Source: a virus (lineage: Duplodnaviria; Heunggongvirae; Uroviricota; Caudoviricetes). From it: 64,000 nucleotides of DNA. The stretch is taken from the IMG/VR virus record IMGVR_UViG_3300024348_000012. One strand, given 5' to 3'. The notes below the pieces were generated by a model. The model was given only the letters and a program-made list of their open reading frames with translations, did not search any database and was not told where the DNA came from. The position numbers and the translations under genes were made by a program. Positions 17,477-43,201 of this stretch are shown piece after piece (position 1 is the first letter of the stretch; every line of letters begins with the position of its first letter).

Positions 17477-17480
17477 CTAT

Positions 17481-25956: not shown

Positions 25957-26147
25957 TATTAATGAAAAAGATTAAATCATTGCAGGACGGCAAACCTAAG
26001 TGGGCAGCGTCAAAGCAGTTAGATGAAATCAGGTCCGCTATACAATTGTTAGAACGATACAATGACATATCGGAGCAGGACATAGAGAATGAAGATGAGT
26101 ATTTAAAACAAATCTTTGAAGTACATCCTGCTAAAGCAAAAGCTTAA
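25917..26147 (+). CDS. hypothetical small protein
   Basis: 76-aa ORF overlapping the previous gene by 40 nt. Confidence 0.35.
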   Translation: MDYAIKKLKQDEIVLMKKIKSLQDGKPKWAASKQLDEIRSAIQLLERYNDISEQDIENEDEYLKQIFEVHPAKAKA

Positions 26148-26184
26148 GTCGGACAATCTTAATAAAAATAAATTCAGTTAATAT

Positions 26185-26391
26185 ATGAATAGTAATAGTA
26201 TAGACATAGAGAAGTATAATAGTATAGAGATAGATAGACATAACACTATGGGAGATAAAGATTTCATAGAGTGGTGTAAACAATATAACATAGGTAGTAG
26301 AGTAGAAGCAGTAAGTGAACAAAGACTAAAAGCAAATGAGTTAATGTCGCAGTACACTAAGTACACTCACTACATAAGTAAAAGAAATTAG
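26185..26391 (+). CDS. hypothetical small protein
   Basis: 68-aa ORF. Confidence 0.35.
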   Translation: MNSNSIDIEKYNSIEIDRHNTMGDKDFIEWCKQYNIGSRVEAVSEQRLKANELMSQYTKYTHYISKRN

Positions 26392-26442
26392 ATTTGGTAT
26401 TCTAATGTTTTCATTTTTTTTGATTTAGCAAGAGTGAGGTAT

Positions 26443-26600
26443 TAAGGTTATCCTCACGACCCCGCAATGAGTAACATCGTTGCGGGATTCTTGTGCTTAT
26501 TATTTTTTGCGAACAGTTACGTGTAGCTCAACGCAAACGAGGTTGCTGCAAATTGGGTCGGATACGTGCGAATACCGGGGACCAATTTTTTTGCTATGGA
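26443..26600 (+). other. hairpin-rich GC-elevated intergenic region (terminators and/or ncRNA)
   Basis: GTGAGG-n12-CCTCAC; CCCGCAA-n12-TTGCGGG followed by a T-run; GGTC...GACC-AATTTTTTT. Confidence 0.35.
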
Positions 26601-26725
26601 CGCAATTTTGACATGATGTATGATACACACAAAGTGAAAATAGGTGTTTTTCTTTTACCTAAGTGATACTTATCTATACGATATCGGAATTAGTTGACTT
26701 ATTTTTTAACCAAACTAAATTAAAT

Positions 26726-26836
26726 ATGAAAGTATTAGATTTCGTTTTACACTATCCGTTTTGGGTAGGTGTATTAGTAGGGTGGAAGTTGATACCTTAC
26801 GCAGTGACATTTGTGAAAAGGTTTATTAAATTATAA
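26726..26836 (+). CDS. hypothetical 36-aa membrane peptide
   Basis: MKVLDFVLHYPFWVGVLVGWKLIPYAVTFVKRFIKL, followed directly by a terminator. Confidence 0.3.
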   Translation: MKVLDFVLHYPFWVGVLVGWKLIPYAVTFVKRFIKL

Positions 26837-26844
26837 ACTGAGAA

Positions 26845-26874
26845 CCCTCTACTTAAAATGTAGGGGGTTTTTTT
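26845..26874 (+). terminator. rho-independent terminator
   Basis: CCCTCTAC-ttaaaat-GTAGGGGG followed by TTTTTTT. Confidence 0.55.
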
Positions 26875-26899
26875 ATTTACAAATAAGATATTTATTAGT

Positions 26900-27094
26900 A
26901 TGAAATTAAAAGAACTATTAGTAAAGATGTATGAAGGTAATTGTGAAAGATTGCCAGATGAGAGTGATGAAGATTATCTAACACGTTGTAGTAATTCAGT
27001 ATTCAATCTACCAGGTAATATCTCACAAAGAAGTAACCTACCCAATGTAATGAAAAAGAAAATTGTAATTCCTATCCCTATTAAAGAAAAATAA
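26900..27094 (+). CDS. hypothetical small protein
   Basis: 64-aa ORF. Confidence 0.4.
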   Translation: MKLKELLVKMYEGNCERLPDESDEDYLTRCSNSVFNLPGNISQRSNLPNVMKKKIVIPIPIKEK

Positions 27095-27095
27095 A

Positions 27096-27395
27096 ATGAT
27101 AAAAGAAAGTGTATATGTAGAAGCGGCAGATGCATTTGGTACATCAATTGGAGTTGCACATATTATTGGATTTAAGAATAAGAGTGAACAAATAAAGGAA
27201 GAAGGTATAGAATCGTTTAAGAAGATAGAGCCAGAATTAGAAGTGAACTATATCATTTTAGACGCAATAGATGAAAACAAATACCAAGAACTACAAAGAG
27301 AAGTATATAAGATAAAACAAAAAGGAGATAAAAGATTAAAAGAAAAAACAATTTATAGAAAGGCTTTAGAAATAGTATTATATGGCAAGAAATGA
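27096..27395 (+). CDS. hypothetical protein
   Basis: 99-aa ORF. Confidence 0.4.
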   Translation: MIKESVYVEAADAFGTSIGVAHIIGFKNKSEQIKEEGIESFKKIEPELEVNYIILDAIDENKYQELQREVYKIKQKGDKRLKEKTIYRKALEIVLYGKK

Positions 27396-28218
27396 TTTAA
27401 AGGTTAACCCTCAAAGATATGTAAAGATTAGTGAAAGGTTTTGGCAAGTTACAGCGTCTCCTGCTATTGAACCAGTTTTCATCGCAAGAACATCTATATT
27501 GAAAGATTTAACACCGGTATTAAAAACGGAAGGTTTTGTTATACAATTGGATAATCAGTATTTGCTCTCACAAAAAACATTAGATTTAATATTACAAAGA
27601 GATTCACCACACTACTCAATAGAAGCAAATGGTGATATATTAGGAGTACAAATAGGAAAATCTATACCCGTTCTTAAAATTGACCTAGCTCCAGTATACC
27701 AAACAGCAGAGTATAGACAAAGATTAGATAATAGTGCAGCAATTAAATTTGCAGAGTGGTTATACTTAGGAGATAAACACCCAATATATGATGTTCCTTT
27801 AAGATTAATAAATTGGATTGACTATATGTTAACCGATAAAATGGTATCCCCTACCGAAACCTTTGAGATATATGAGTTCGCATTAGAATTAGAAGTGCTA
27901 CAAAAAGAAATTGATTCATTTGCTACGGAGATAACATGGAATCAATCATCAGGCTCCATTATAATTGCAAACGATAAAACTACTAACTATATAACAAAGG
28001 TAAATGGTTACTTAGATGCACTTAGAAGAGACTTTGATTCTATTGTAAAAGTTTATTCATTAGGTATTATTCCTCCTGATAATGGAGACTCATTTACAAG
28101 AACTACCAATAAGATAGTGACCGATGAAATAGAAGGTGTGAATAGAGTGGTAACACTACAATCTGCCGCAGTAGCTAGTATAACACCAAGAACCACACCA
28201 ACACCAACACAAGTTTAA
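27382..28218 (+). CDS. hypothetical protein
   Basis: 278-aa ORF. Confidence 0.45.
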   Translation: MARNDLKVNPQRYVKISERFWQVTASPAIEPVFIARTSILKDLTPVLKTEGFVIQLDNQYLLSQKTLDLILQRDSPHYSIEANGDILGVQIGKSIPVLKIDLAPVYQTAEYRQRLDNSAAIKFAEWLYLGDKHPIYDVPLRLINWIDYMLTDKMVSPTETFEIYEFALELEVLQKEIDSFATEITWNQSSGSIIIANDKTTNYITKVNGYLDALRRDFDSIVKVYSLGIIPPDNGDSFTRTTNKIVTDEIEGVNRVVTLQSAAVASITPRTTPTPTQV

Positions 28219-28247
28219 TAATCACTATTTATTTCAAACGCAAACAT

Positions 28248-28517
28248 ATGCTAAAGTTACTAAGTGAAAAAATCGTTAAGTTATTAGAGAACATAGGAGT
28301 AGTGATGAGAATCATTGCATTCGGTACTCTTTCTATTATGGGCCCGTCTACTCCTTTCTTACTTATGTGGATATGGAATACCATTGATGCAATCATTCTA
28401 ACTTATTGTGCATGGGAGAGAAGTAATAGAGCATACCTTATTCTAAATATTTTTTGGATGTTAGTCGGACTTATAGGTATATACACATCAATTTTTGGAA
28501 ATGCAATCACCCATTAA
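28248..28517 (+). CDS. hypothetical membrane protein (3 TM)
   Basis: 89 aa with three hydrophobic helices. Confidence 0.45.
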   Translation: MLKLLSEKIVKLLENIGVVMRIIAFGTLSIMGPSTPFLLMWIWNTIDAIILTYCAWERSNRAYLILNIFWMLVGLIGIYTSIFGNAITH

Positions 28518-28656
28518 GTCTATATCGGACATTATAACCTGTATACTACTCATTCCTGTCATTTTGGTTGCCTTCATTGGTCTAACTATGTATTGGGTGT
28601 GTAAGTTTCCATTTTGGTACATAGAGAGGAAAGAATGGTGGAGGAATCACAAATAG
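28501..28656 (+). CDS. hypothetical 51-aa membrane peptide
   Basis: MQSPIKSISDIITCILLIPVILVAFIGLTMYWVCKFPFWY..., overlapping the previous stop in another frame. Confidence 0.3.
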   Translation: MQSPIKSISDIITCILLIPVILVAFIGLTMYWVCKFPFWYIERKEWWRNHK

Positions 28657-28708
28657 AGGTATACTATCAATAGAGGTACGATATTCTTATTCCAAAAATT
28701 TTCTTAAA

Positions 28709-28746
28709 AAACGACCTTTCCCCCAACCCCCACACCCCTTCATATG
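28709..28746 (-). repeat. inverted copy of the G-tract element (C-rich on + strand)
   Basis: The minus strand reads GAAGGGGtgtGGGGGTTGGGGGaaagGTCGTTTTTT, near-identical to 19788-19818. Confidence 0.6.
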
Positions 28747-28767
28747 ACGAAACTCATATAATGTATA

Positions 28768-28799
28768 TTTGAAAATCTAAAATATTTATCGTATATTTA
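28768..28799 (+). promoter_or_regulatory. conserved phage promoter box
   Basis: tttgaaaatctaaaatatttatcgtatattta; about 70-nt leader to the 28870 gene. Confidence 0.45.
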
Positions 28800-28869
28800 T
28801 TCTTTATTAAAAACAAATAATAGTTATATTTATAGGAGAATATAAACAAACAAAAACAAATAGTATAAT

Positions 28870-30327
28870 ATGAAGGCAGTATTAATATCTACGGATTACA
28901 TTAAAACAGCAACGGGTGAATATAAGGTTTTAGAAATAAATACAAGTACAAGAATCGTAGCGGCCGATAATGAAGGAAATCTACCGGGATTAGACTGGTC
29001 AAATCTAACTACCTTTATCCAAACTAATGGATTTACAAATGTACATTGTATAATACCAATGTACGATAAAGGGTTTGCAACTAAATTAAGTGAAATATGT
29101 GATAACATTGGTGGAATTACATTTCTTTCACATGAAACAAGTGGTACTTCAATTACTGTTCCATATATTGAAGATAACGAAACTACTCTTATTTTGAGAG
29201 TTTCATATGATACTACTGCAATTGTTGATGATGAGTATTGTAGAGATAATTATTCTTTCTTAAGAGCAATTAATGAATTAACAACAAAACCAAAAACTTA
29301 CATACCAAACATATCCGACGATTTTGAAAATTTATCAGAATTTAACTATACATTAGATTTACCGAATTTTATTATTAAAAAACGATATCCAAATTATGAT
29401 AAAAATGAATTCCCTAAATTATATAAAGTACAAAATTTAACCGAACTAACACAATTAAAAGGGTTAGTTAATGTTAATACGGAATTTTTACAAGAATTTA
29501 CAAATTCAGAAATTCTATCAAACAAAAGAAGTATTATCAGAGGAATTGATATAATATATGGTTCTAATTTAGATGTAATTAGTATGGGTGGATATAAAGT
29601 ACTTCATGCAATCACAGAAAATATATGGAGTAACACATTTGGAGATTTAGGACTATTAGCTAAAAAAGATAGACCAAAATATATTACATATTACTCACCA
29701 ACATCCGATAGAGCTACATATATTTACGATGAAGACCAAGAAGTTTTAATGGCGGATGGTAGTAGAAAATCATTTGCGGAATTAGAAGTGGGTGATTCTG
29801 TAAAATCAATAAATATCCCATCATTACCAGTAAATGAGACCGAATATAAAGTGGAGGAGTGGACAGGTAGTCATACTGATTTCACTACAAATTTTGCAGT
29901 TAGTGAAACAGCTATTGTTGTAAAAACTACACAAACAACATCTGATTTATTTATTAGAATTACATTAGAAGATGATATTGTATGGGATGATTTACCCGTA
30001 ACCCACCTTCTTGTTAAGAATGATGATGTTATAAGATTTAAAAATGTTAACAATTTGCAAATTGGTGATGTATTAGAATTATTTAGTACGGAAACCGAAA
30101 CTATTGTAAATAAAACAATTACTAATTTAGAAATATTATTTAAAGAAAATGAAGTAGTTGGAACTATGGATGTTGAACCTTTAGATTTGTTCTTACCATT
30201 AGTAACAAACTCATTCGCTATCGTTCAACACAATGCATGTAATGCAAACTTTTGTTCAAGTTTCGGAGGACAATGTTACAATTATGGTAAATGTGGTGAT
30301 TGTGGATATTATCAATGTGCTAAATAA
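28870..30327 (+). CDS. Hint (intein/pretoxin-HINT-like) domain protein with C-terminal 30-aa six-Cys tail
   Basis: Residues about 292-455 show Hint blocks: N-terminal VLMADGSRKSFAELEVGDSV (the Cxx[DG]T...G...I.eL..GD.V pattern with Val at position 1), TGSHTDF, and C-terminal MDVEPLDLFLPLVTNSFAIVQHN (blocks F/G ending in HN). Followed by ACNANFCSSFGGQCYNYGKCGDCGYYQCAK. Confidence 0.5.
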   Translation: MKAVLISTDYIKTATGEYKVLEINTSTRIVAADNEGNLPGLDWSNLTTFIQTNGFTNVHCIIPMYDKGFATKLSEICDNIGGITFLSHETSGTSITVPYIEDNETTLILRVSYDTTAIVDDEYCRDNYSFLRAINELTTKPKTYIPNISDDFENLSEFNYTLDLPNFIIKKRYPNYDKNEFPKLYKVQNLTELTQLKGLVNVNTEFLQEFTNSEILSNKRSIIRGIDIIYGSNLDVISMGGYKVLHAITENIWSNTFGDLGLLAKKDRPKYITYYSPTSDRATYIYDEDQEVLMADGSRKSFAELEVGDSVKSINIPSLPVNETEYKVEEWTGSHTDFTTNFAVSETAIVVKTTQTTSDLFIRITLEDDIVWDDLPVTHLLVKNDDVIRFKNVNNLQIGDVLELFSTETETIVNKTITNLEILFKENEVVGTMDVEPLDLFLPLVTNSFAIVQHNACNANFCSSFGGQCYNYGKCGDCGYYQCAK

Positions 30328-30494
30328 AAAATATTAATTATGGAAATTATACAAAACGAAATCGTTGAATTAACAATTACAGAGAAATCAGAAATTGCAA
30401 CAATATTTCAAAATATTATAACAAATATAAAAACTGATATTACAAATCAGTAAAAATATTTGGTAATTCAATTTTTTTTTATTATATTAGTGTT

Positions 30495-30770
30495 ATGGGA
30501 TTTAATTTAAAAACTATATCACAATCTTGGTTTGATTCGTACTTTGGTACCGATTCTCAAAGGGAATTGGCTAAAGAAAGATTAGGCATATGTGAAACTT
30601 GTCCGTCAAAAAAAGAACTTTTTAAGAATCAAAATTGGTCAGTTGTATGTGGTGAATGTGGTTGCCCAATTAATAAAAAAATATTTTCTAAAAAAATAAA
30701 AGAATGTCCATTGGACAAATGGAAAGAAGTTGATTCTAATTCTATTATTTTCTCAAAAAAAGTTATATGA
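30495..30770 (+). CDS. Cys-rich zinc-ribbon-like small protein
   Basis: CETCPS...CGECGCP...KECP. Confidence 0.45.
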   Translation: MGFNLKTISQSWFDSYFGTDSQRELAKERLGICETCPSKKELFKNQNWSVVCGECGCPINKKIFSKKIKECPLDKWKEVDSNSIIFSKKVI

Positions 30771-31264
30771 TAGAATCCATATATGGTTTTTTAAATGATG
30801 TGGAATTGAGTTTAGTAGATACATTTTGTTTAAATTTTAAACAAGAAGATAATCCACGTCCCACTAATTATTACAATAGAATGTTTCTAAATAAAGAAAC
30901 AGATTTAATTGATTATCAAAATAAAATAAAGAACCACTTATTCCAAAAATATGGTATTACATATGAAGTAGAAGGTATTTGGATAAATAAAGTAACACCA
31001 GATACAAATAAAGATGACGAATTTCATTTAGATAATAATGCGTTAACAATCGTTACTTATATAAATGATAATTTTATAGGAGGGGAATTTGAATATTTTA
31101 TATTAGGAATTAAACCAAATCAAAAAATAAATCCAAAAAGAAATTTAAGTTTAATTACAAACGATAAATTACCACATAGAGTATTGCCTGTAATTACAGG
31201 AGAAAGATATTCAATTGTGGTTTTTTGTGTTATACCAAATAAAGATAAAAAAACAATGTTATGA
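30767..31264 (+). CDS. 2OG-Fe(II) oxygenase, prolyl-4-hydroxylase-like
   Basis: HLD (HxD), GGEFEYF, second His PHRVLPV, and GERYSIVVF (the 2OG-binding Arg-x-Ser). Confidence 0.6.
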   Translation: MIESIYGFLNDVELSLVDTFCLNFKQEDNPRPTNYYNRMFLNKETDLIDYQNKIKNHLFQKYGITYEVEGIWINKVTPDTNKDDEFHLDNNALTIVTYINDNFIGGEFEYFILGIKPNQKINPKRNLSLITNDKLPHRVLPVITGERYSIVVFCVIPNKDKKTML

Positions 31265-31875
31265 TAAAGATTAATATCAACAATGAAATTGATATATATA
31301 AAACTACATTAGATTTTAATTCAAATTTTGATAAAAATTTATTTATTGATAAATTAAAAATTGTTGATACATTAGTAGATGCGTCCCTTCCAGCTAAAAA
31401 AACACCAGGTAGACAAGCCGCTTTATCTGAAATGTATATGCCTGAATTAAATTTTATAAAAGATAATATATCTAATTTATTATCAACGGAATTTAATGTT
31501 AGTAATAATTTTATTATGAAAACATGGGTTTATTATAGTGATAGTGATAATGGTTATAGTGGATACCACACACACGAAACATTGCACCCAAGGCCAACAA
31601 CGGCCGTTGGTAAGGTAAAAACGAATTATACATTTACATATTACCTACAAATGCCAAATAATCTTAAAAATGATGAAGGAAAGTTATTTTTAAAAACGAA
31701 ATCTGGATTTGAATTTGGTATATTACCAGAAGAAGATGATGTTTTTATATTCCCGGCCGACCTAGAACATAGACCTGAAACCAATCCCAATTCAACTAAA
31801 TCCAGAATTGTTATTGCCGGTAACACTGCTTTTTTTGATGAACATTTGAGAAAAACAGAAAAAAGCGTTTTATAA
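31261..31875 (+). CDS. hypothetical protein (possible cupin/oxygenase-like)
   Basis: His-rich motifs YHTHETLHP ... DLEHRPE ... RIVIAGN; weak. Confidence 0.35.
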   Translation: MIKININNEIDIYKTTLDFNSNFDKNLFIDKLKIVDTLVDASLPAKKTPGRQAALSEMYMPELNFIKDNISNLLSTEFNVSNNFIMKTWVYYSDSDNGYSGYHTHETLHPRPTTAVGKVKTNYTFTYYLQMPNNLKNDEGKLFLKTKSGFEFGILPEEDDVFIFPADLEHRPETNPNSTKSRIVIAGNTAFFDEHLRKTEKSVL

Positions 31876-33075
31876 ATGAATATCGTTATTGTAGGAGGAG
31901 GAACTGCCGGATGGATTACTTCTTTATTTTTACTTTCAGAATATAAAAATAGTAATATCACAGTTATTGAAAGTGATGTTATTGGTATATTGGGTGCAGG
32001 AGAAGGCTCAACACCACTAATGAAAAAATTCTTAAAGAAATGCAATATTGATGAAAACGATTTCATTAACAAAACGAAATCTACTTTTAAATTGGGTATT
32101 GATTTTGAAAATTGGAATGTTTGCAACAAATCGTATAAACATCCATTTATAAATGATTCCAAAGCATATCATTTTGATGCAAGACTAATTGCAGAATATT
32201 TTAAACAAATATCAATTAATAGAGGTGTAACTCACATAAATGGAATTGTAAAATCTTTTGTTCAAAATGATAAAAAAGATATTACCAATTTGGTATTATC
32301 GGATGATACAACAATACCAACTGATTTTGTATTTGATTGTTCAGGATTTCATAGATTACTAATCGGGAAATTATATAATTCAAATTGGGTTTCGTATTCA
32401 AATCATTTAAAAGTAAATACGGCCGTTCCATTTTTCTTAGATAGAACGGATACTAATATGGAATTGGATACCAAAGCAATTGCGATGGATTATGGTTGGA
32501 TGTGGCAAATTCCATTACAACATAGATGGGGATGTGGGTATGTATTTGATGGTAATAGAATAAACGAAATACAGGCCAAAGAAGAAATTGAATTAAAATT
32601 AAATAGAAAAATACAATCACCAAAGACATTAAAATTTTCAGCAGGTTATTATGATAATGTGTGGGTTAATAATTGTATTGCTATGGGATTAGCTAGTGGG
32701 TTTTTAGAACCATTGGAAGCAGTATCAATCCACATTACACTTATGGAATTGAATTTAATTAAAAACCATTTATTTAAAGATAACGATACTAATATAGTTA
32801 ATGAAAAATTTTCACAAATAATGGATGAACATTTTTTATTTATATATTATCATTATTTGTGTAATAAAAAAGATACAGAATTTTGGTCAGATTATAATTT
32901 GATTAGTGCACCATTGGAGTTACACAAATTTGTTAAAAAAGATTTAAACATATCGTTTAGTTCCGATGAGGATTATATTTCTAAATTCAAATATAATGAT
33001 GTTGTACAATATACACACTACGATTGGAAACTTATAAATGATGGAATTTTTGGTTTAAATAAATCTTTATTATGA
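31876..33075 (+). CDS. flavin-dependent halogenase (tryptophan-halogenase family)
   Basis: MNIVIVGGGTAGWITS (FAD GxGxxG), ITVIES...ILGAGEGST, the signature YGWMWQIPL (WxWxIP), and AMGLASGFLEPLEAVSIHI (the halogenase GxxSGFxEPLES block). Confidence 0.8.
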   Translation: MNIVIVGGGTAGWITSLFLLSEYKNSNITVIESDVIGILGAGEGSTPLMKKFLKKCNIDENDFINKTKSTFKLGIDFENWNVCNKSYKHPFINDSKAYHFDARLIAEYFKQISINRGVTHINGIVKSFVQNDKKDITNLVLSDDTTIPTDFVFDCSGFHRLLIGKLYNSNWVSYSNHLKVNTAVPFFLDRTDTNMELDTKAIAMDYGWMWQIPLQHRWGCGYVFDGNRINEIQAKEEIELKLNRKIQSPKTLKFSAGYYDNVWVNNCIAMGLASGFLEPLEAVSIHITLMELNLIKNHLFKDNDTNIVNEKFSQIMDEHFLFIYYHYLCNKKDTEFWSDYNLISAPLELHKFVKKDLNISFSSDEDYISKFKYNDVVQYTHYDWKLINDGIFGLNKSLL

Positions 33076-33440
33076 TTGAAACAATAAACATAAATACCAA
33101 ATTATATGTCAAATATATTGATAATATAAAAGGATTTGGTGTATTTGCAAATCATATAATTAAAAAAGACGAAATTATTGAAGATTGTTATTCTTTATTA
33201 ATTCATAATACAAATTCGGATTACGAACCTTATTATTTTTATTTTAAAGGTGACACTAAATTATTACCATTAGGATTTGGTTCTATTTATAACCATAACA
33301 ATAATCCAAATATAGCTTGGAAAATCGTAGATGATAATCGTAAAATAATTAGATTTTATGCAATAACCGACATCAATATCAATGAGGAATTGTGTCATAA
33401 TTACGGCCCTAATTATTGGAAAAATAAAAATATATTATAA
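33072..33440 (+). CDS. SET-domain protein methyltransferase
   Basis: GFGVFANHIIKKDEIIEDC...IYNHNNNPNIAW...NEELCHNYGPNYW (SET N-region, NHxCxPN-like and ELxxxYG post-SET-like motifs); about 120 aa as in viral vSET. Confidence 0.55.
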   Translation: MIETININTKLYVKYIDNIKGFGVFANHIIKKDEIIEDCYSLLIHNTNSDYEPYYFYFKGDTKLLPLGFGSIYNHNNNPNIAWKIVDDNRKIIRFYAITDININEELCHNYGPNYWKNKNIL

Positions 33441-34123
33441 TGAATACACTTTGGACATTTGGTGATAGTTTTACATTTGGTCATGGTTGTAGAGAAGATT
33501 GTAATTCATATACCGTAGATGATTATTATGGTTACAAAAAAGAAGGAGATGACATCTGGCCCAACCATTTAGGTAATTTGTTAAATTGTAAGGTTAGTAA
33601 TTTAGGAAAAAACGGAGTATCAAATGATTATATTTTAGATGCAATAATAGATAATTTTGATTTTATAAAAGAAAATGATTATATTATAATAGGAAAAACA
33701 TTCCATGGTAGAATTGAAGTACCTTTTAATAATAAAATTTATAAATCCTTTGCACATTATGAGGGTGGTAAGATAGATGAAAATACTAATAGTAAAGATA
33801 TATGGATAAAAAATGAATTTAAAGATTTAAACAAAGAAGTGATAGAAACAATTATTAATTTTCAATATTATTTTTCAAATGAATTATTTTATAAAGAACG
33901 AAATAATAAAAGATTTGAATTTATTAAGAATAGATTGCATAATGAAAAAAATGTAAAGTTTTCTTATATATGGGGAATAGAAGAAGATAAAAATTTTTAT
34001 CACACATTTCAACAAATAATACAGGCAACTAATGGCAAAGTAATTGATACACATTTTTCTTTTAAAGGTCACTTAGATTTTGCACATTTTATTTATAATA
34101 AAATTAATACCAAAATAATATGA
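33440..34123 (+). CDS. SGNH/GDSL-family hydrolase
   Basis: N-terminal TFGDSFTFGHG (GDSx block I), conserved Gly/Asn blocks and a distal DxxH-like motif. Confidence 0.55.
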   Translation: MNTLWTFGDSFTFGHGCREDCNSYTVDDYYGYKKEGDDIWPNHLGNLLNCKVSNLGKNGVSNDYILDAIIDNFDFIKENDYIIIGKTFHGRIEVPFNNKIYKSFAHYEGGKIDENTNSKDIWIKNEFKDLNKEVIETIINFQYYFSNELFYKERNNKRFEFIKNRLHNEKNVKFSYIWGIEEDKNFYHTFQQIIQATNGKVIDTHFSFKGHLDFAHFIYNKINTKII

Positions 34124-34665
34124 TTAAAAAAAAATTGGGGTTTACAACATATTGTTATGATGAATTTATAACAATAGAAGAACAATCTGAAATTAAAAAA
34201 TGGGCATTAGATAATGAAAATAAAATGCCACCGAATATGTCTGGCCCGTATAGAAGATTTAGTAGATTGGATAGTTTTAATAATATACCGAATATAATAC
34301 ATACTATAAAACAAAGAGTTATAGATGTTGAAAATATAAAAAATGTAATGGAAGCACCACAAAATGCCGATTGGGTAGGTATTCAATGGGAAAATGCCTT
34401 TGTTGAACCACATTTAGATGACAATGGCAACAATAAAAATTATTATACCAGACGATATAATATACTAGTATCATATCCTGAAGAAGGAGGCCAACCTATA
34501 TATGGTAATGAAATTTTAGAAGTTAAAGAAAGAATGATGTGGAGATGTGATGCGGGTTTAATTGAACATTCTAGTATACCAAATAAAGGAAAAATACCTA
34601 GAATTAATTTGTCTTTTGGATTTTTAATGCCAATAAAAACTACAACTAAAAAATCTTTATTATGA
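34120..34665 (+). CDS. 2OG-Fe(II) oxygenase, P4H-like
   Basis: EPHLDD (HxD), GGQPIY, IEHSS (distal His), RINLSF. Confidence 0.55.
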   Translation: MIKKKLGFTTYCYDEFITIEEQSEIKKWALDNENKMPPNMSGPYRRFSRLDSFNNIPNIIHTIKQRVIDVENIKNVMEAPQNADWVGIQWENAFVEPHLDDNGNNKNYYTRRYNILVSYPEEGGQPIYGNEILEVKERMMWRCDAGLIEHSSIPNKGKIPRINLSFGFLMPIKTTTKKSLL

Positions 34666-35222
34666 TATATCAACAAAAAATATTTACAAAAGAGGAATGT
34701 CAAACCATAATAGAGTACCATAAAAAATATACCGACTTGGAAGGTTGGTTTCCCTCAAAATACATTGACGGCCAACGAATAAAAGATAACCACAATCTAA
34801 TGGCATATGAAGTATATAATATACTTAACAATGCAGAAACAAATTGGTTTTTTGTAAAATTATTTAATTGGTTTAGTGAAGTTAGCGGAATTAAAATTGA
34901 TGAAACTAATAAGTTACCAAAATGTACCTTACACAGATATACCATTGGTGACCATTTTGCAAAACATATAGATTTAATGAAGGGATACGAAGAAAGAAGA
35001 TATAATTCAGGCATACAACTGAATGATGAATACGATGGTGGTGAATATGTGACTTGGGATGCGCTGGGTAAGGAAATATTAATATCAAAAGAACCTGGCA
35101 CAGCTGTAGCGTACAGTTCTACAGTTGAACATGAAATAAAAGAAATAACAAAAGGAGAGAGATGGTCTATTGTGATGCCCATAACAAAATACAATATAAT
35201 TGAAAAGAAAAGTTTTATATAA
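34662..35222 (+). CDS. 2OG-Fe(II) oxygenase, P4H-like
   Basis: KHIDLMK (HxD), YDGGEYVTW, VEHEIK, GERWSIVMP. Confidence 0.6.
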   Translation: MIYQQKIFTKEECQTIIEYHKKYTDLEGWFPSKYIDGQRIKDNHNLMAYEVYNILNNAETNWFFVKLFNWFSEVSGIKIDETNKLPKCTLHRYTIGDHFAKHIDLMKGYEERRYNSGIQLNDEYDGGEYVTWDALGKEILISKEPGTAVAYSSTVEHEIKEITKGERWSIVMPITKYNIIEKKSFI

Positions 35223-35893
35223 TGTCAATATTAATTAAAAATGATATAATATGGGTTTCAATTCCAAAATGTGCATCAATGTCAATAGAGGATGCGTTGT
35301 TGAATTCTAAGTTGGACATAGAGAGACATTCCTATGCAATTAAAAGTGAACCACTACATACACACATTGGTATCCGTAAATTAAAAGAAGAATTTGGTGA
35401 TAAAAAAACTATATGTATAAAAAGAGATTGGTTTGAAAAGTGGGTAAGTGCCATTCAGTTTTGTTTTGAAACCATAATACCAACCGATGGAAATCTACCA
35501 ATCAAAAAATGGGAAGATATTGATAATGATTTTATTTATTCAATATTTACGGATGAATTTATAAATTTATTATATTCCGAAAAAACGGATTCATTAAATG
35601 AGTGTTATAGTAGATTGATTGTAAATGGAAAAGTAACAGAAACAAATAGATTGTCCGTACTATTTTCCCAAAATTATTGGAAAGAGGATAACAAATGTGA
35701 TTATGAATTTGACATAAAAGATATGGATAAATTTGTTTCTTTCATAGAACAAAAATATGGGGAAAAATTAATAATTCGTAAAATAAATGAAAATCCAAAA
35801 ACAAAAAGTAAATTAGTTTTAAATGATGAACTAAAAGAGTTTATTTGGCAAAAGTTTGAAAAAAGATTTTCTAAAAAAAGTTATTTATTATAA
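35222..35893 (+). CDS. sulfotransferase-like protein (putative)
   Basis: N-terminal IIWVSIPKCASMSIEDAL resembles the PAPS 5'-phosphosulfate-binding loop (PKxGxT) of Sulfotransfer_2-type enzymes; weak. Confidence 0.35.
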   Translation: MSILIKNDIIWVSIPKCASMSIEDALLNSKLDIERHSYAIKSEPLHTHIGIRKLKEEFGDKKTICIKRDWFEKWVSAIQFCFETIIPTDGNLPIKKWEDIDNDFIYSIFTDEFINLLYSEKTDSLNECYSRLIVNGKVTETNRLSVLFSQNYWKEDNKCDYEFDIKDMDKFVSFIEQKYGEKLIIRKINENPKTKSKLVLNDELKEFIWQKFEKRFSKKSYLL

Positions 35894-36384
35894 TGTTTAC
35901 TAAAGAAGAATGTGAAAGAATAATTTATTTAGCTCAGTCATCTTTAGTGGATTCTAAATTATATTTTAAATATGATGATAATATAAAATATAAAGTATCT
36001 AATATCAAAAAAGATGAAACTACGGATTGGATATTTGATAAAATGCTTGTATTTTTTACAAACAGAACTGGTATTAAAATAAAAAAATCATTGAATATTT
36101 TACATGTTCACAATTATAAAACAGGAGATTATTTTAAAAAACATAGAGATGATTTACACCCAACACAAATACACAATATAGGTGTTTGTTTAAATGATGA
36201 TTATGTAGGTGGTGAATTTATTTTATATGAACCATATGAAATATTACCAAAAAAACAAGGTGAGATATATACATTTGAAAGTTTAAGATTACATGAAGTT
36301 AAAAAAATAGAAAGTGGTGAAAGATGGAGTATAATTGCATTTTTACATAATGAAAATTTAGAACTAAAAAAAACACTATTATGA
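35893..36384 (+). CDS. 2OG-Fe(II) oxygenase, P4H-like
   Basis: KKHRDDLHP (HxD), YVGGEFILYEP, LRLHEVKKIESGERWSIIAF. Confidence 0.6.
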   Translation: MFTKEECERIIYLAQSSLVDSKLYFKYDDNIKYKVSNIKKDETTDWIFDKMLVFFTNRTGIKIKKSLNILHVHNYKTGDYFKKHRDDLHPTQIHNIGVCLNDDYVGGEFILYEPYEILPKKQGEIYTFESLRLHEVKKIESGERWSIIAFLHNENLELKKTLL

Positions 36385-36914
36385 AAATCGGTATAACTGG
36401 ACACTCTAAAGGATTGGGAGAAGCAATTTATAATAAATTAAATAAAATGAATGAAGTTATTGGATTTAGTAGAACAAATGGATACGATATTCAATCACCA
36501 AATAATATAATAGAAAAATTAGAAAATTGTGATATTTTTATAAATAATGTGTATTATGAAACCCATCAATCTAATTTATTTTTTAAATTATTTCAAAAAT
36601 GGAACGATTTAGAAAAAACGATAATTAATATAAATAGTAGTTCTATACATCAATCGGGCGCATGGAATCCTTTATATGTTGCAAACAAAAAACATTTAAA
36701 AGATATTACACAATCTCTAATTGATAAATACCCACAGAAAAAATGTAGAATTATTAATTTAAATTTGGGTACATTAGATACACATAAAAACTTTGAAACT
36801 TTTAATAAAATCGAAGTATCTAAAGTTGCGGAAGTAGTGGAATGGTGTATAAATCAACCACATGGTATTGAAATACAAGAATTAACAATATTACCAACAA
36901 CACAACTAAAATAG
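36381..36914 (+). CDS. short-chain dehydrogenase/reductase-like NAD(P)-binding protein
   Basis: MKIGITGHSKGLGEAIYNKL (TGxxxGxG Rossmann motif); short (177 aa). Confidence 0.45.
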   Translation: MKIGITGHSKGLGEAIYNKLNKMNEVIGFSRTNGYDIQSPNNIIEKLENCDIFINNVYYETHQSNLFFKLFQKWNDLEKTIININSSSIHQSGAWNPLYVANKKHLKDITQSLIDKYPQKKCRIINLNLGTLDTHKNFETFNKIEVSKVAEVVEWCINQPHGIEIQELTILPTTQLK

Positions 36915-36943
36915 ATGTTATTGACACTTGAAAAAATAATAAT

Positions 36944-37762
36944 ATGAAAATTTTAAAATATTGGAAGCCTGACGGGTTTGAAATTTCCTCTTACAAATAC
37001 TCATTAAAAGAAAAAGCAAATCAAATACATACAACGTGTGGTGAAGATAATACTAATCTATGTACCTACACCTACAATGAATTAGGATTTAGGGGTGACA
37101 GTATAAAAAAAGAAGGGTTTAAGGTAATGTCATTAGGTTGTTCAATTACCGAAGGGGTTGGTGTAAATGATAATGAAACGTGGACATCTCAATTCACAAA
37201 TTTAGTACCAAATTCAGTAAATTTAAATTTTGGTGTTTGTGGTAGAAGTAATGATTTTATAGTAAGGTGTTTGTTAAGTTACTATGATTTAATTAAACCA
37301 GATTTGGTATTAATTATGTATACATACTCAACTAGAAAAGAAATATATACAAATGATGGGGGAGTTGAACCATATATGGCAACATCTGCATGGGGATATA
37401 TGCAAGAAACTGAAGATGGTAGACTTATTCAAAAAAATTTACTTGAAATACAAAACGATAATGAAGATTTTATAAATTGGTATAAAAATCATCAATTGAT
37501 AAAATTATTTTTAGAATCTAAAAAGTGTAATTTTATTTGGAATGGTAGTTTGATTCGTTCTAATTATAAAGATGAATTTAGATATGATGGTGATTTTTTC
37601 TTAAATGTATTAGATAAAGGAGTGGATAATAAACATGCAGGCCCAAAACACCTTAAAAATTATGCAACAAAGTTATACGACCATATCAATAATAATTTTC
37701 CTCATTTTTTATTAAATGATAAAACTAAATTAAATATTAAAAATAGTAATAAATTAATATAA
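36944..37762 (+). CDS. SGNH-hydrolase-like protein (putative)
   Basis: FKVMSLGCSITEGVGVN resembles SGNH block I (GDS replaced by GCS); distal His near C-terminus. Confidence 0.4.
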   Translation: MKILKYWKPDGFEISSYKYSLKEKANQIHTTCGEDNTNLCTYTYNELGFRGDSIKKEGFKVMSLGCSITEGVGVNDNETWTSQFTNLVPNSVNLNFGVCGRSNDFIVRCLLSYYDLIKPDLVLIMYTYSTRKEIYTNDGGVEPYMATSAWGYMQETEDGRLIQKNLLEIQNDNEDFINWYKNHQLIKLFLESKKCNFIWNGSLIRSNYKDEFRYDGDFFLNVLDKGVDNKHAGPKHLKNYATKLYDHINNNFPHFLLNDKTKLNIKNSNKLI

Positions 37763-38323
37763 ATGGTAATTACAATCCTTGCAGAACCAAGAAGTGGTTC
37801 AACTAATTTAGCTAATTGGTTTTATTTTAATAAAGACTTTACAATATTATATGAACCAATTACCAGTCCAAAATGGAAATGGTATAAGCATGGTGTATCA
37901 CCAAAATTATGGGAATATAACACTTCTCATTTATTAGTTAAAGAAATTTTTAGACCAGAAACAGATTTTTCTGAATTAATAGAAATATCTGATAAGGTAA
38001 TTATTTTATATAGAGAAAATATAATTGAACAAACCGAATCTTGGTTAAATGCTAATAAAACAAATAATTGGGATAAAGCATGGGTATTTAAAGAAAATTT
38101 AATAAAAAATGAGGATGCATCATATTTTAATCAAATAAAATCCGGATTAAAAGAAAATTATTTGAATAAAGATTATTTTAATATATCATACGAAGAATTA
38201 TATTATAATAATGGTTTTGAAAAAATATTAAATTATTTAAATATAGACGAATTAGAAAATAAAAACTTTCCTTACGGAGAGAAATATAGAATAAATGTTA
38301 ATAAACCAAATACCTTAATATAA
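37763..38323 (+). CDS. sulfotransferase (Stf0/Sulfotransfer_3-like)
   Basis: MVITILAEPRSGSTNLANWF matches the PAPS-binding PRSGST(T/L)L 5'-PSB loop; size about 190 aa, typical of Stf0-type. Confidence 0.5.
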   Translation: MVITILAEPRSGSTNLANWFYFNKDFTILYEPITSPKWKWYKHGVSPKLWEYNTSHLLVKEIFRPETDFSELIEISDKVIILYRENIIEQTESWLNANKTNNWDKAWVFKENLIKNEDASYFNQIKSGLKENYLNKDYFNISYEELYYNNGFEKILNYLNIDELENKNFPYGEKYRINVNKPNTLI

Positions 38324-38324
38324 A

Positions 38325-38356
38325 TTTGGTAATGTCAATTATTTGTCGTATATTAG
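38325..38356 (+). promoter_or_regulatory. conserved phage promoter box
   Basis: tttggtaatgtcaattatttgtcgtatattag. Confidence 0.5.
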
Positions 38357-38384
38357 AGTATTATAAACAATTAAACTCTAAATT

Positions 38385-39032
38385 ATGAAACAAAAGACAG
38401 AACAAGAATTGAAAGCAAATTATGACCGATTTATAGGTATAATTAAGAAGTATTTTAAAGGAGAAAGATTGGAGAAATTACTCCATATGTATTCCGAAGA
38501 AGAATTGGGTGTAAATTTAACCCTATCACCGGCGTCCGGCTCAAAACACTATCATAATGGGTATATAGGTGGGTATATTGACCACATCTTTAATGTATGT
38601 AAGAACGCTCTTAAAATGAGAGACCTGTTCGTAATGCAAGGTGGAGAGATTGATTTCACCGAAGAAGAATTGATATTTAGTTGTCTACATCACGACTTAG
38701 GAAAGTTGGGTATTAAAGGTGAATTACATTACCTACCAAACCAAGAAGAATGGTCTCAAAAGAAATACGGAACTTTATTTGTTCGTAATGAGAAGATACC
38801 TTATATGACTTTAACCGATAGAACTTTCTTTACACTAAACGACTATGGTATTACTTATAATGAGAAAGAGTATTTTGCAATCAAACTTACTGATGGTATG
38901 TATGACGAAGATAATCAAAAGTATTTAGCAGGTCACGACTTAAAGAAACAATTAGTTTATAAGTTACAATTTATTATGCATTGGGCAGACCATATGTCTA
39001 CAATCATTGAAAGACAAGATAACGTAATTTAA
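38385..39032 (+). CDS. HD-domain phosphohydrolase
   Basis: HYHNGYIGGYIDHIF ... LHHDLGKLG (H...HD...D metal-binding motifs). Confidence 0.65.
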   Translation: MKQKTEQELKANYDRFIGIIKKYFKGERLEKLLHMYSEEELGVNLTLSPASGSKHYHNGYIGGYIDHIFNVCKNALKMRDLFVMQGGEIDFTEEELIFSCLHHDLGKLGIKGELHYLPNQEEWSQKKYGTLFVRNEKIPYMTLTDRTFFTLNDYGITYNEKEYFAIKLTDGMYDEDNQKYLAGHDLKKQLVYKLQFIMHWADHMSTIIERQDNVI

Positions 39033-39152
39033 TGACACATTTTCCGATTTGTAACAAAGTAAGTGTAAAATTGTCATAACTTTGTAACGGAGTAAGAGAT
39101 GGTATAGTATTTGGACTATATAGAATATTATTAACTAAAAAACATTTATATT

Positions 39153-39530
39153 ATGTACATGATTGATTACAGTAAGTTATTTGAAGAGTTCTTTAATGAA
39201 CCAAAAACAACAACTTATGTTCCAAACAAATTCGCAGTAGACATTAAAGACGAAGTCGCGAGTATTGCACTATCAGTATTAGGACACAACCCAGAGGATA
39301 TTGAAATTAATTGCTTTGAGGACAAGATTGAAATTAAAGCTAAAAAAACACAAGAGGATAAAGAAAGTCCTTTTAATCAATTGGTTTCGGATATTGAAGA
39401 AAGAATCCAAGTAGGCAAAAACTTTGATGGTAAAAAAGCAAAAGCTGAGATTAAAAATGGAATTCTCTTAATTACACTTGAAAGAAAAGAAGAGTCCAAA
39501 CCAAAAAAATTAACCCCAAAATTAGGTTAA
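39153..39530 (+). CDS. small heat-shock protein (Hsp20/alpha-crystallin domain)
   Basis: AVDIKDEVASIALSVLGHNPEDIEINCFEDKIEIKAK ... AKAEIKNGILLITLERK (the ACD AxxxNGVLxIxxPK-like end). Confidence 0.55.
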   Translation: MYMIDYSKLFEEFFNEPKTTTYVPNKFAVDIKDEVASIALSVLGHNPEDIEINCFEDKIEIKAKKTQEDKESPFNQLVSDIEERIQVGKNFDGKKAKAEIKNGILLITLERKEESKPKKLTPKLG

Positions 39531-39555
39531 TTCAGTTATTTTTTGTATATTACAA

Positions 39556-39586
39556 AGGTAGAAGAGTCATTACTTCTACCTTTTTT
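39556..39586 (+). terminator. rho-independent terminator
   Basis: GGTAGAAG-agtcatta-CTTCTACC followed by TTTTTTT. Confidence 0.6.
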
Positions 39587-39608
39587 TATTTATTAAATAT
39601 TTATAAAC

Positions 39609-39785
39609 ATGATATACAACGAAAAAATACAAATGTTATTGGAATCTTTAGACGGTAAGTTGAGGATTTTGCAAAATGGAATTACAGGTGCACAACATAT
39701 GTCACCTTCTGAAGCTCACACTACATTGGAAGATGCAAGAAAGATAGCTGAACGAATTTCCGAATTAACACGAATCAATAGATAA
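39609..39785 (+). CDS. hypothetical 58-aa protein
   Basis: Small ORF filling the gap; its stop abuts the next ATG. Confidence 0.3.
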   Translation: MIYNEKIQMLLESLDGKLRILQNGITGAQHMSPSEAHTTLEDARKIAERISELTRINR

Positions 39786-40964
39786 ATGAATTGGCTTAAA
39801 TATTTAGTCGGATTTTCTGCACTAATTATCGCCGGTTGTGCAGCATTTTTCTCCGTAACAGGATTGGGTGTTCTATTTAGTGGAGCATCAACCGCAGTAA
39901 TGGTAATGGCCGGGTCATTGGAATTTGCTAAATTAGTAGCAGCAACCTATCTTAAACAAAAATGGGATGAAATTAAGGGTTTTAATAAGTGGTATTTAGT
40001 ATCTGCTGTTGCATTACTAATGTTAATCACATCTGCAGGTATCTTTGGTTACCTTTCTAATGCTTTTCAGGCACAATCACTTAAATTACAACAGGTAGAT
40101 AGGGAAATTATGGTTCATTCTACTAAAATTGACCAAAATACTACTCAAATCACTCAATTATCAACACAAATTAGTGAGTTTAATAAAAATCAAGGTAAAA
40201 TATTAGATGGTGGTAAGGTAAATTCTCGTCTTATTCGTTCAATAGACAATAGAGATAAAGAAATTGCTAAAATTAACAAAAAAATTAGTGATTTACAAGA
40301 CCAAAACGCAAAAGAAAACGAAAAAATCAACGAAATTAAAACTACTAATATAGATTTAGAAAAAGAAGTAGGTGGTTTTAGGTTTGTAGCAGAAGCATTC
40401 GGTGTAGAACTGAAAAATGTTGTAAAGTTCTTCATATTTTTGATTGTAATCGTATTTGACCCATTGGCAGTTGCTTTAATTATCGCATTTAATGGTATGG
40501 TTGGTGAAACAAAACGAAAACAACGAAAACTTTTAGGTGAAATTATGGAAAATGATGAAAAATTGAGCTTATACGATAATTTGGATGATTTGATGGAAGA
40601 AAACTACAAAAATTACCAAATATACGGAGATAATGGAAAATATTCTACAAAAGAGGATAAAAATGAAGTTATAGTGGAAAATATTCTTAACGAAACGGAA
40701 AAAAATGAGATTAACGAAAAAAAAGAAGATACAAATGTTGAATCTACTGATGTTGTGGTTGATGTTACACCTGCTTCTGAAATTATAGAAGAAACCCCAT
40801 CATTAAAATGGGAAGAATACATGCATCCAGAATTCCAATGGCAAAAAAGAAATTTGTGGATAAATAACCCAAAGGCAGTTAATTATTGGTTAAAATCAAA
40901 AGGTGGAACCGTTAGAGAATTGGCAAAATTCAGAAACGAAGAAGAAAATATCAAAACTTATTAA
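39786..40964 (+). CDS. membrane protein with central coiled coil
   Basis: Three N-terminal TM helices, long coiled-coil (heptad-like QITQLSTQISEFNKNQ...), another TM (VVKFFIFLIVIVF), acidic C-terminus. Confidence 0.45.
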   Translation: MNWLKYLVGFSALIIAGCAAFFSVTGLGVLFSGASTAVMVMAGSLEFAKLVAATYLKQKWDEIKGFNKWYLVSAVALLMLITSAGIFGYLSNAFQAQSLKLQQVDREIMVHSTKIDQNTTQITQLSTQISEFNKNQGKILDGGKVNSRLIRSIDNRDKEIAKINKKISDLQDQNAKENEKINEIKTTNIDLEKEVGGFRFVAEAFGVELKNVVKFFIFLIVIVFDPLAVALIIAFNGMVGETKRKQRKLLGEIMENDEKLSLYDNLDDLMEENYKNYQIYGDNGKYSTKEDKNEVIVENILNETEKNEINEKKEDTNVESTDVVVDVTPASEIIEETPSLKWEEYMHPEFQWQKRNLWINNPKAVNYWLKSKGGTVRELAKFRNEEENIKTY

Positions 40965-40967
40965 TTA

Positions 40968-40998
40968 TTTGGTAATTTAGAATAATTTTCGTATATTA
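40968..40998 (+). promoter_or_regulatory. conserved phage promoter box
   Basis: tttggtaatttagaataattttcgtatatta; ends 5 nt before the ATG at 41004 (leaderless-type). Confidence 0.5.
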
Positions 40999-41003
40999 CA
41001 AAT

Positions 41004-41399: not shown

Positions 41400-41592
41400 A
41401 CGACATATTGCTAAAACTATCTCATATCGTATTTTAAGTACCATAATTGGTTTCTTATTAACGTGGTTGATAAGTGGTTCAATTAAAGTTGGAGCAGCAT
41501 TTGGAGTAGCAGAATTGATTTATAAACCCATTCAATACTATATTCACGAAAGAGTATGGTATAAATGGATTAAATACGGATTAAAAAAATAA
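41383..41592 (+). CDS. small membrane protein (DUF2061-like)
   Basis: 69 aa with two TM helices; pattern resembles DUF2061. Confidence 0.4.
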   Translation: MVVERKRHIAKTISYRILSTIIGFLLTWLISGSIKVGAAFGVAELIYKPIQYYIHERVWYKWIKYGLKK

Positions 41593-41595
41593 AAT

Positions 41596-42243: not shown

Positions 42244-42244
42244 T

Positions 42245-43199: not shown

Positions 43200-43201
43200 A
43201 A

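Follow-up and report, generated by a model that had tools for sequence, protein, structure and literature searches.

Background

Flavin-dependent halogenases (FDHs) generate hypohalous acid from reduced flavin, O2 and a halide; their WxWxIP block keeps the substrate off the flavin, and an aromatic ring receives the electrophilic halogen by way of a catalytic lysine and glutamate. The reduced flavin is commonly supplied to such halogenases by host reductases. They are sought-after biocatalysts, and those that accept peptides or proteins are few. Here we describe a halogenase gene at positions 31876..33075 (+ strand) of a 64,000-nucleotide stretch of Caudoviricetes DNA from an uncultured marine phage (IMG/VR record IMGVR_UViG_3300024348_000012), the whole of which is called the window below. 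Its product belongs to the same Pfam family as PrnA, RebH, PyrH, Thal, Xcc4156 and BrvH, and has the same GxGxxG motif, Lys/Glu pair, WxWxIP motif and flavin-module fold. What is new is that it represents a truncated, apparently virus-specific clade of halogenases, and that it is a swappable cassette in a gene island around an ATP-grasp/Hint protein.

Among viruses, VirX1, the iodinase of cyanophage Syn10, is presented as a characterized viral FDH (Gkotsi et al. 2019, as quoted in PMC10452541), and our literature search found no characterized viral halogenase besides it. Genes annotated as 'tryptophan halogenase' occur in T4-like marine phages (HTVC008M, P-SSM2, S-PM2 and S-RIM44; PHROG 2928), and tryptophan-halogenase-like genes, called abundant auxiliary genes, are recorded in 20 of 153 cyanophage genomes (PMC10452541). 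Peptide halogenases are described from systems that make ribosomally synthesized peptides with post-translational modifications (RiPPs), namely MibH (NAI-107), SrpI (proteusin SrpE) and ChlH (chlorolassin) (PMC12615548). There, as in the window, a flavin halogenase stands beside a gene for a Cys/aromatic-rich ribosomal peptide and other tailoring enzymes. However, the RiPP systems have a separate short precursor with a leader, whereas the candidate peptide here is the tail of a 485-residue enzyme fusion; furthermore, the window system is phage-borne and, unlike the RiPP peptide halogenases, was not found in cellular genomes. Our literature search returned no paper on truncated viral halogenases or on the ATP-grasp/Hint/Cys-tail family.

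Identity of the halogenase gene

The gene is an ATG-to-stop open reading frame (ORF) of 399 codons. The reverse strand of the same interval contains many stops. The gene begins immediately after the stop of the preceding one, and its own stop codon overlaps the next start (ATGA). The product matches Pfam PF04820 Trp_halogenase with E=1e-91 and 308.6 bits (curated cut-off 21) and PHROG 2928 'tryptophan halogenase' with E=6e-94, and 30 solved chains of the Trp-halogenase family match it with E-values from 1e-34 to 1e-57.

A preliminary description, made from the letters of the window, had called this gene a flavin-dependent halogenase on the strength of three motifs, all of which we recovered on the + strand. 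The FAD-binding GxGxxG motif, GGGTAGW (residues 7-13), is encoded at 31894..31914, and its G7, G8, G9, G12 and W13 are invariant in an alignment of 59 homologues. The WxWxIP motif, GWMWQIPL (residues 207-214; 32494..32517), retains W208 and P213 in the 59 homologues and in 75/75 viral copies, of which 65 have W and 10 have F at position 210. The SGFLEPLEA block (residues 274-282; 32695..32721) contains E278, which pairs with the catalytic glutamate E346 of PrnA in the HMMER alignment ('FLEPLE') and is invariant in the 59 homologues; E278 and P279 are kept in 75/75 viral copies. The catalytic lysine, on which the preliminary description had made its assignment depend, is also present: K72 (codon 32089..32091, context 'TFKLG') pairs with PrnA K79 (FK/FK, chains 4z43 and 4z44, HMMER alignment), and is invariant both in the 59 homologues and in the 71/71 viral copies that cover the position. 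Three further residues, H89, F91 and W384, we read as equivalents of the indole-stacking H101, F103 and W455 of PrnA; HMMER aligns the H89/F91 block to other halogenases only, not to PrnA, and no aligned stretch reaches W384. All three are largely conserved among homologues and viral copies.

The AlphaFold2 (AF2) model has a predicted local distance difference test score (pLDDT) of 93.6. Foldseek matched it to PyrH, PrnA, SttH, Xcc4156 and BrvH with TMq of 0.86-0.90, the TM normalized by target length being only 0.61-0.73. Compared with the copy of locus L001 (92% identity), the ratio of non-synonymous to synonymous substitution rates (dN/dS) comes to 0.115, and compared with that of locus L003 (72%) to 0.17. 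The gene is therefore not decaying, and is under purifying selection. Taken together, the window almost certainly carries an intact halogenase-family enzyme on a phage.

Phage origin and distribution

All genes in the window lie on the + strand, and the G+C content is about 29%. No tRNA genes were found in the window, and no cellular housekeeping family was found among the approximately 50 window ORFs scanned. A gp6-type baseplate wedge gene (49269..51293, +; phrog_219, E=1e-23) is present, and viral contigs in IMG/VR, the longest of 316 kb, carry relatives of the halogenase and its neighbors, in agreement with the phage origin given in the preliminary description. The same description had suggested a Bacteroidetes phage, which we could not confirm: the only cultured relatives of the window's tail genes are in Microcystis phage Mel-JY01 (35-41% identity) and Flavobacterium phage immuto (36-38%). 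A megablast search with 26000..46000 found no match among deposited phages, and the region therefore has no annotated close relative; fragments that are identical (100%) or near-identical to a neighboring gene are found in records titled 'marine metagenome'.

Viral halogenases had been portrayed as very rare, with a few known from marine cyanophages. This was overstated. By tblastn, halogenase homologues occur in 83 of 50,697 deposited phage records, mostly cyanomyophages but also HTVC008M and Campylobacter phages, and at least 576 IMG/VR contigs carry one. Halogenases also appear as auxiliary genes in virioplankton surveys. Viral halogenase genes are thus not rare; characterized ones are few. 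One 10-kb contig with a halogenase and precursor pair (L020, IMGVR_UViG_GVMAG-M-3300009164-63_000001) is labelled in IMG/VR as part of a giant-virus metagenome-assembled genome, which is probably a binning artefact, because its gene content matches that of the phage loci.

A short viral form of the halogenase family

Solved relatives are all longer than the window halogenase, by 100-150 residues. In the alignments to all solved halogenases, a gap of about 48-72 residues follows query residue 94 and the C-terminus is short. The solved Trp-family FDHs, which are 25-29% identical to the window enzyme, none of them being specifically related to it, carry a segment of about 60 residues (after query residue 92) and C-terminal helices, both of which the window enzyme lacks. 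Against homologues of 506-509 residues with 44-46% identity, 61+7 columns are absent after residue 92 and 38 at the C-terminus. The missing parts correspond to PrnA residues ~105-156 and to the C-terminal helices that enclose tryptophan; in PrnA and RebH such regions belong to the module enclosing free tryptophan. Since the segments that enclose free tryptophan are lost, we infer an active site that would be more open to a bulky substrate. The natural substrate is probably something other than free L-tryptophan. The 'tryptophan-type' label of the preliminary description is thus right as to family membership, but does not extend to the substrate, the enzyme lacking segments found in the solved free-Trp halogenases.

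Short forms make up a large clade, with lengths of 399-420 residues in most of the top 120 database clusters. Viral contigs reach 40-50% identity to the window halogenase among the IMG/VR matches listed. Cellular genomes were scanned with two sequence patterns, and among the matches listed identity peaks at 30-36% (best of 572), the top 80 all being from Proteobacteria. Sequence comparison thus suggests that the clade of approximately 400 residues is virus-specific.

Relation to known enzymes was judged by ranking of Protein Data Bank (PDB) bit scores: Xcc4156 scored 196 bits, PrnA 179, VirX1 133 and MibH 121, the nearest solved relatives being Xcc4156, AbeH, PrnA and BrvH. MibH is the weakest Trp-family PDB match, without specific sequence kinship to the window enzyme. 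VirX1 (6qgm) is likewise virus-encoded and of the same family; however, it has 531 residues against 399, ranks only 29th of 31 PDB matches, comes from another phage lineage, and has no neighbor of the kind described in the next section. Among deposited phages, the best-matching copy is that of Pelagibacter phage HTVC008M, with 36% identity, 92% query coverage and a TMq of 0.87. It has 464 residues and sits between terminase genes, with a 2-oxoglutarate/Fe(II) (2OG-Fe(II))/PhyH-type oxygenase upstream. An oxygenase-halogenase pair common to HTVC008M and the window was considered and rejected, the PhyH gene showing no detectable homology to the 204-codon gene that precedes the window halogenase.

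The ATP-grasp/Hint protein and its tail

A candidate substrate is encoded 1.5 kb upstream of the halogenase, at the 3' end of a 485-codon ORF (28870..30327, +; ORF 28870), which we propose to be a precursor. It comprises an ATP-grasp domain (residues ~1-275), a Hint domain of intein fold (~284-455) and a 30-residue tail. The first part has an ATP-grasp fold of the GspS/GshB/YgiC class; its invariant E22 and N24 ('LEINT') resemble an E-x-N Mg site, although a homologue aligns with ATPgrasp_ST there at E=0.045 only. The second part has the Hint fold, Pfam giving only Hint matches below threshold for the family.

Inteins cleave C-terminally by Asn cyclization, using a His-Asn pair. The Hint domain of ORF 28870 ends in H454-N455 (codons 30229..30234, +), both invariant in 37 family members of 33-97% identity, at a position that matches the HN of intein block G, and this is the predicted site of Asn-cyclization cleavage. 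An invariant Tyr284 stands in the place of the intein N-terminal nucleophile in the same 37 members, and the +1 residue after N455 is variable (A/S/P/G/T), with an invariant Cys at +2. Because the nucleophile is replaced and the +1 residue varies, no splicing is expected; the domain is thus not an intein, and would at most cleave at its C-terminal side.

The tail, ACNANFCSSFGGQCYNYGKCGDCGYYQCAK (residues 456-485; 30235..30324, +), contains six Cys, four Tyr and two Phe but no Trp, and is the candidate released peptide and halogenase substrate. Four of its cysteines (C457, C469, C475 and C478) are invariant in the 37 members, and it is disordered in the model (pLDDT <50). The tails of sister clades are Trp-rich, as in SCWCPWNYCGHWCNSWYCPSC and PCYGWCWMSSCAYYWCNSC; loci L005 and L008 are examples of the 'MHN-SCWCPWNYCGHWC' clade. 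Five loci (L063, L074, L114, L131 and L149) have a second, canonical Hint domain, with a Cys start and an HN end (Intein_splicing, 42.6 bits), behind the Cys/Trp peptide, and L103 has a weak Peptidase_S74 autoprotease domain (14.5 bits) there, so that the peptide is bracketed by putative self-cleaving modules. L010 has a clear S74 domain (25.6 bits) with nothing but the dipeptide 'KW' between it and the HN. Such variants lend weight to excision of the peptide.

No homologue of ORF 28870 was found by tblastn in the 50,697 deposited phage records, and no relative in 185,579 species genomes by a combined pattern and tblastn scan; the protein belongs to no PHROG family and to no Pfam family above threshold. 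In contrast, 463 relatives were found in metagenomes, and 270 on IMG/VR contigs. The family is apparently restricted to viruses. The closest comparison systems are bacterial intein-like (BIL) domains, the BUBL loci of Tetrahymena and RiPPs whose precursor is fused to an enzyme, such as the borosins (OphMA). ORF 28870 differs in that its Hint domain has no N-terminal nucleophile and is fused to a ligase of the GspS/GshB ATP-grasp type, and in its predicted cargo, a six-Cys aromatic peptide.

Linkage of short halogenases to Cys-rich peptide genes

A homologue of ORF 28870 lies within 2-4.4 kb in 41 of 89 halogenase loci, and in 22 of the 32 that have at least 6 kb on both flanks; conversely, a halogenase is present in 21 of 37 precursor-family loci with flanks of at least 5 kb. 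The linkage persists although gene order varies between clades: the window clade has the precursor gene upstream of the halogenase, the 'MHN' clade has it downstream.

Co-directional ORFs within 5 kb of the halogenase were then clustered, separately for short halogenases (≤430 residues, n=71) and long ones (n=18). Cys-rich peptide genes adjoin 53 of the 71 short halogenases but only two of the 18 long ones; in other words, about three-quarters of the compact viral halogenases stand next to genes for Cys-/aromatic-rich peptides. The partners are of two unrelated kinds. The ORF 28870 family accounts for 39 of the 71, and a radical S-adenosylmethionine (radical SAM) enzyme with a Cys/Asn-rich protein for 14; the remaining 18 have neither, although around ten of these are on contigs cut short that still carry the 204- or 91-codon gene of the island described below. 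The second context consists of a 480-residue radical SAM protein (Pfam, 31.1 bits), one or two 2OG_Oxy_5 proteins and a Cys/Asn-rich protein of about 130 residues ending in ...CACACW. It is found up to 5 kb upstream of the halogenase in L026, L027, L035, L037, L044, L045, L050, L070 and L088. In L027 and L044 the Cys/Asn-rich protein is fused to an S74 domain directly after ...CFW.

Within the window clade, tails ending in G/S-YYQCAK ('YYQC') occur only where a halogenase is present, and the halogenase-free relatives have SAIQCGK, SPSQCPVK, SGVQCPAK or TKLQCPTK tails instead. As the YYQC tail tracks the halogenase in a single lineage, this is suggestive only; a metagenome scan for close relatives of ORF 28870 gave 11 loci, too few for statistics of tail against halogenase within the clade.

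The halogenase as an exchangeable cassette

The island around the halogenase extends from 28870 to approximately 38300. The halogenase is flanked upstream by a gene for a 2OG-Fe(II)-oxygenase-like protein of 204 residues (31261..31875, +; phrog_81, E=1e-12, with a weak PF13640 match) and downstream by one for a SET-domain protein of 122 residues (33072..33440, +; PF00856, E=3e-13), which forms the downstream border of the slot. The 204-codon gene accompanies the halogenase in 47 of 88 loci. The halogenase fills the slot in the window, in L001-L004 and in L249-L251. In L090, L091 and L097 the island is collinear and the SET gene directly follows the 204-codon gene, without a halogenase (L090, 7112..7131); these three loci have the phage backbone of the window, with an HD protein of up to 96% identity and an HSP20 of 83%. 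In L246 the slot (3534..4577) is occupied by a 347-codon radical SAM gene. The halogenase is thus an optional cassette in a conserved, virus-only island. The slot between the 204-codon and SET genes looks like an exchange site for genes of the tailoring type. The island conserves the minimal SET-domain protein as well; SET-domain methyltransferases are uncommon in phages.

Adjacent to the precursor is a gene for a 91-residue Cys-rich, zinc-ribbon-like protein with a CxxC...CxxCxC pattern (30495..30770, +; phrog_13558, E=6e-9). Wherever a halogenase locus has an ORF 28870 homologue (41/41), this gene adjoins it, as it does in most of the precursor-family loci (75 in all); it is almost always the precursor's neighbor, with or without a halogenase. 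The 91-residue protein may be a recognition or chaperone partner.

Proposed function and alternatives

The product of ORF 31876 is predicted to be a catalytically competent two-component halogenase, dependent on FADH2 that presumably comes from a host reductase. K72 and E278 would deliver halogen, derived from whichever halide the enzyme uses, to an aromatic ring of the substrate. In the function that we propose, cyclization of Asn455 would free the six-Cys tail of 30 residues, and the halogenase, the 2OG-Fe(II) oxygenases, the SET-domain protein and the sulfotransferase-like proteins of the island would decorate that tail before or after its release, the halogenase targeting tyrosines in the window (YNY, YY) and tryptophans in the sister clades. 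We adopt this reading, in which the halogenase tailors a self-released ORF 28870 peptide, tentatively, putting it slightly short of an even chance. Whether the substrate is a peptide or protein, as opposed to a free metabolite, we consider evenly balanced; that it is specifically the ORF 28870 tail is somewhat less probable than that. The preliminary description had proposed an aromatic residue on the C-terminal peptide of ORF 28870 as a possible substrate; this is still the best-supported lead, as a candidate; the tail offers tyrosine, not tryptophan. Broader still, and correspondingly more doubtful, is the idea of a virus-only, hitherto undescribed class of ribosomal peptides in which an ATP-grasp/Hint protein would cut off its own tail by Asn cyclization, with a second Hint or an S74 domain cutting at the far end in some variants, and in which swappable neighboring enzymes would modify the tail by halogenation, hydroxylation, sulfation, methylation or radical SAM chemistry.

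Should the proposal prove true, it would provide a concrete natural substrate for phage halogenases, a question open since the annotation of the cyanophage genes, as well as a new ribosomal peptide route, by self-release from an ATP-grasp/Hint fusion. Phages would then encode modular peptide-tailoring pathways and make halogenated peptides during infection, and the short viral enzymes would amount to a large family of lid-less peptide halogenases, so far untapped. If the peptide link fails, enzymology nonetheless gains a new, well-defined subfamily of minimal halogenases.

Several observations weigh against a role of the halogenase on the ORF 28870 peptide. The window tail has no Trp, and halogenation of tyrosine would be unusual for an enzyme of the Trp-halogenase family. 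A halogenase is missing within 10 kb of many precursor genes whose tails are Trp-rich (e.g. L098-L118), and the homologues in cultured phages (HTVC008M and the cyanophages) lack an ORF 28870 partner. The closest relatives without a halogenase retain the island in full, so that the halogenase is dispensable, and the linkage could reflect a mere hypervariable accessory region. In a neighbor-joining tree, the halogenases of the Hint context and those of the radical SAM context each fall in essentially one clade; the co-occurrence counts are therefore not independent, and amount to approximately two to four independent associations. In the relatives, much of the wider island appears to be directed at glycans (carbamoyltransferase, glycosyltransferases and sugar epimerases). 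Furthermore, MibH, a peptide halogenase, is no closer to the window enzyme than are Xcc4156 and PrnA, which act on indole or tryptophan, and no flavin reductase was found among the approximately 50 window ORFs scanned.

The main rival is an auxiliary metabolic halogenase of the VirX1 or BrvH/Xcc4156 kind that acts on a free small molecule, such as indole, tryptophan, a phenol or a signal, its place beside ORF 28870 then being incidental; we regard it as possible, though not likely. It draws on some of the observations just listed, since the halogenases of cyanophages and pelagiphages are widespread without an ORF 28870 homologue and precursors with Trp-rich tails often lack a halogenase; moreover, the nearest solved relatives (Xcc4156, AbeH, PrnA and BrvH) act on small molecules, the positions that we read as indole-stacking equivalents are largely conserved, and presence or absence between collinear phages is typical of morons. 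However, about 100 residues common to all solved small-molecule halogenases of the Trp family are missing from the short clade, and the frequent placement of short copies beside Cys-rich peptide genes of two unrelated kinds (53/71, vs 2/18 for the long form) also speaks against it. The alternation of the slot with a radical SAM enzyme also fits interchangeable tailoring better than it does unrelated metabolic genes.

A halogenase for another macromolecule is distinctly unlikely; its target would be an aromatic residue of a different phage or host protein, such as the 91-residue Cys-rich protein or a virion or tail-fiber protein, or else an aromatic group of an island-made glycan or lipid. L012 and L014 each have a short halogenase right behind a large, tail-fiber-like S74 protein, with no ORF 28870 homologue nearby, and some homologues of ORF 28870 and of the Cys/Asn-rich protein end in the tail-fiber chaperone domain Peptidase_S74. 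The 91-residue protein has three Trp, whereas the window tail has none, and the island of the relatives is rich in glycan-modifying enzymes. Nevertheless, the Cys-rich peptide genes track the halogenase at least as well as any alternative substrate gene, the 91- and 204-codon genes are unchanged where the halogenase is absent, and glycans have no activated aromatic carbon unless further modified.

It is very improbable that the protein is not a halogenase in vivo, being either a mono-oxygenase of peptidyl aromatics in the manner of LodB and QhpG (flavoproteins that oxidize protein-bound Trp in Cys/Trp-rich subunits) or a decaying inactive copy: its truncated architecture and marginal NCBIfam matches (E=3e-6 for LodB and 1e-3 for QhpG) stand against a Pfam halogenase E-value more than 80 orders of magnitude beyond theirs, which places it with the halogenases and not with the non-halogenating flavoproteins that the preliminary description had named as the alternative grouping, against Lys, Glu and WxWxIP motifs intact across the clade, the Lys and Glu being invariant, and against dN/dS values of 0.12-0.17, which exclude decay.

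Other features of the island and the window

Hydroxylases and sulfotransferases had both been named as neighbors of the halogenase. The hydroxylases are borne out by Pfam matches to 2OG-Fe(II) oxygenases in the genes starting at 30767, 34662 and 35893, and by the PHROG 81 match of the gene at 31261. The first (30767..31264, +; PF13640 and PF03171) has 165 codons, the second (34662..35222, +; PF13640, E=2e-11) 186 and the third (35893..36384, +; PF13640, E=2e-9) 163. At least four paralogous 2OG-Fe(II) oxygenase genes (30767, 31261, 34662 and 35893) thus occur in a 6-kb part of the window, and relatives have up to five or six in tandem (e.g. L247, 9917..12061). The sulfotransferases stand less firmly. 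A 223-codon gene (35222..35893, +) matches the galactose-3-O-sulfotransferase family phrog_3347 weakly (E=9e-6), and a sulfotransferase-like gene is found in 42 of 88 halogenase loci; ORF 37763 shows only a PRSGST-like motif, with no family match. Pfam found no sulfotransferase match in either ORF, and the window has no adenosine 5'-phosphosulfate (APS) kinase.

Directly after the precursor gene is a conserved 37-codon ORF (30340..30453, +; MEIIQNEIVELTITEKSEIATIFQNIITNIKTDITNQ), whose position and sequence are kept in L001, L003, L090, L097 and L246. It was considered as a halogenase substrate and rejected, having neither Trp nor Tyr. Other clades have a counterpart of 46 codons (MAQKERIERPAQ...KHLG) after the precursor gene. 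The island also holds SGNH-like and SDR-like genes, and a second P-loop gene for which no family matched. L001 and L003 keep the gene order of the window, and close relatives add an APS kinase, an Asp/Arg hydroxylase, a radical SAM enzyme and glycosyltransferases, genes for none of which were found in the window.

Beyond the island lies a NodU/NolO-like carbamoyltransferase gene of a phage auxiliary family (43202..44899, +; phrog_1601, E=6e-118). In relatives (L001), the carbamoyltransferase stands alongside an APS kinase, sugar epimerases and large glycosyltransferases, suggesting a glycan-modification module beside the peptide island. The window also encodes an HSP20 and a peptide deformylase.

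Elsewhere in the window are genes for an FG-GAP repeat protein (6935..8218; E=6e-24), an SPFH/Band 7 protein (12196..12735; E=4e-22) and a UvdE UV-damage endonuclease (17454..18368; Pfam, E=4e-66). A 1542-codon ORF without a family match lies at 56056..60684, and the ORF at 54705..56015 encodes a protein whose C-terminus is a Gly-rich low-complexity repeat (GGGTGGGGGTGGGGRGEGSGTGGGGRGEGS).

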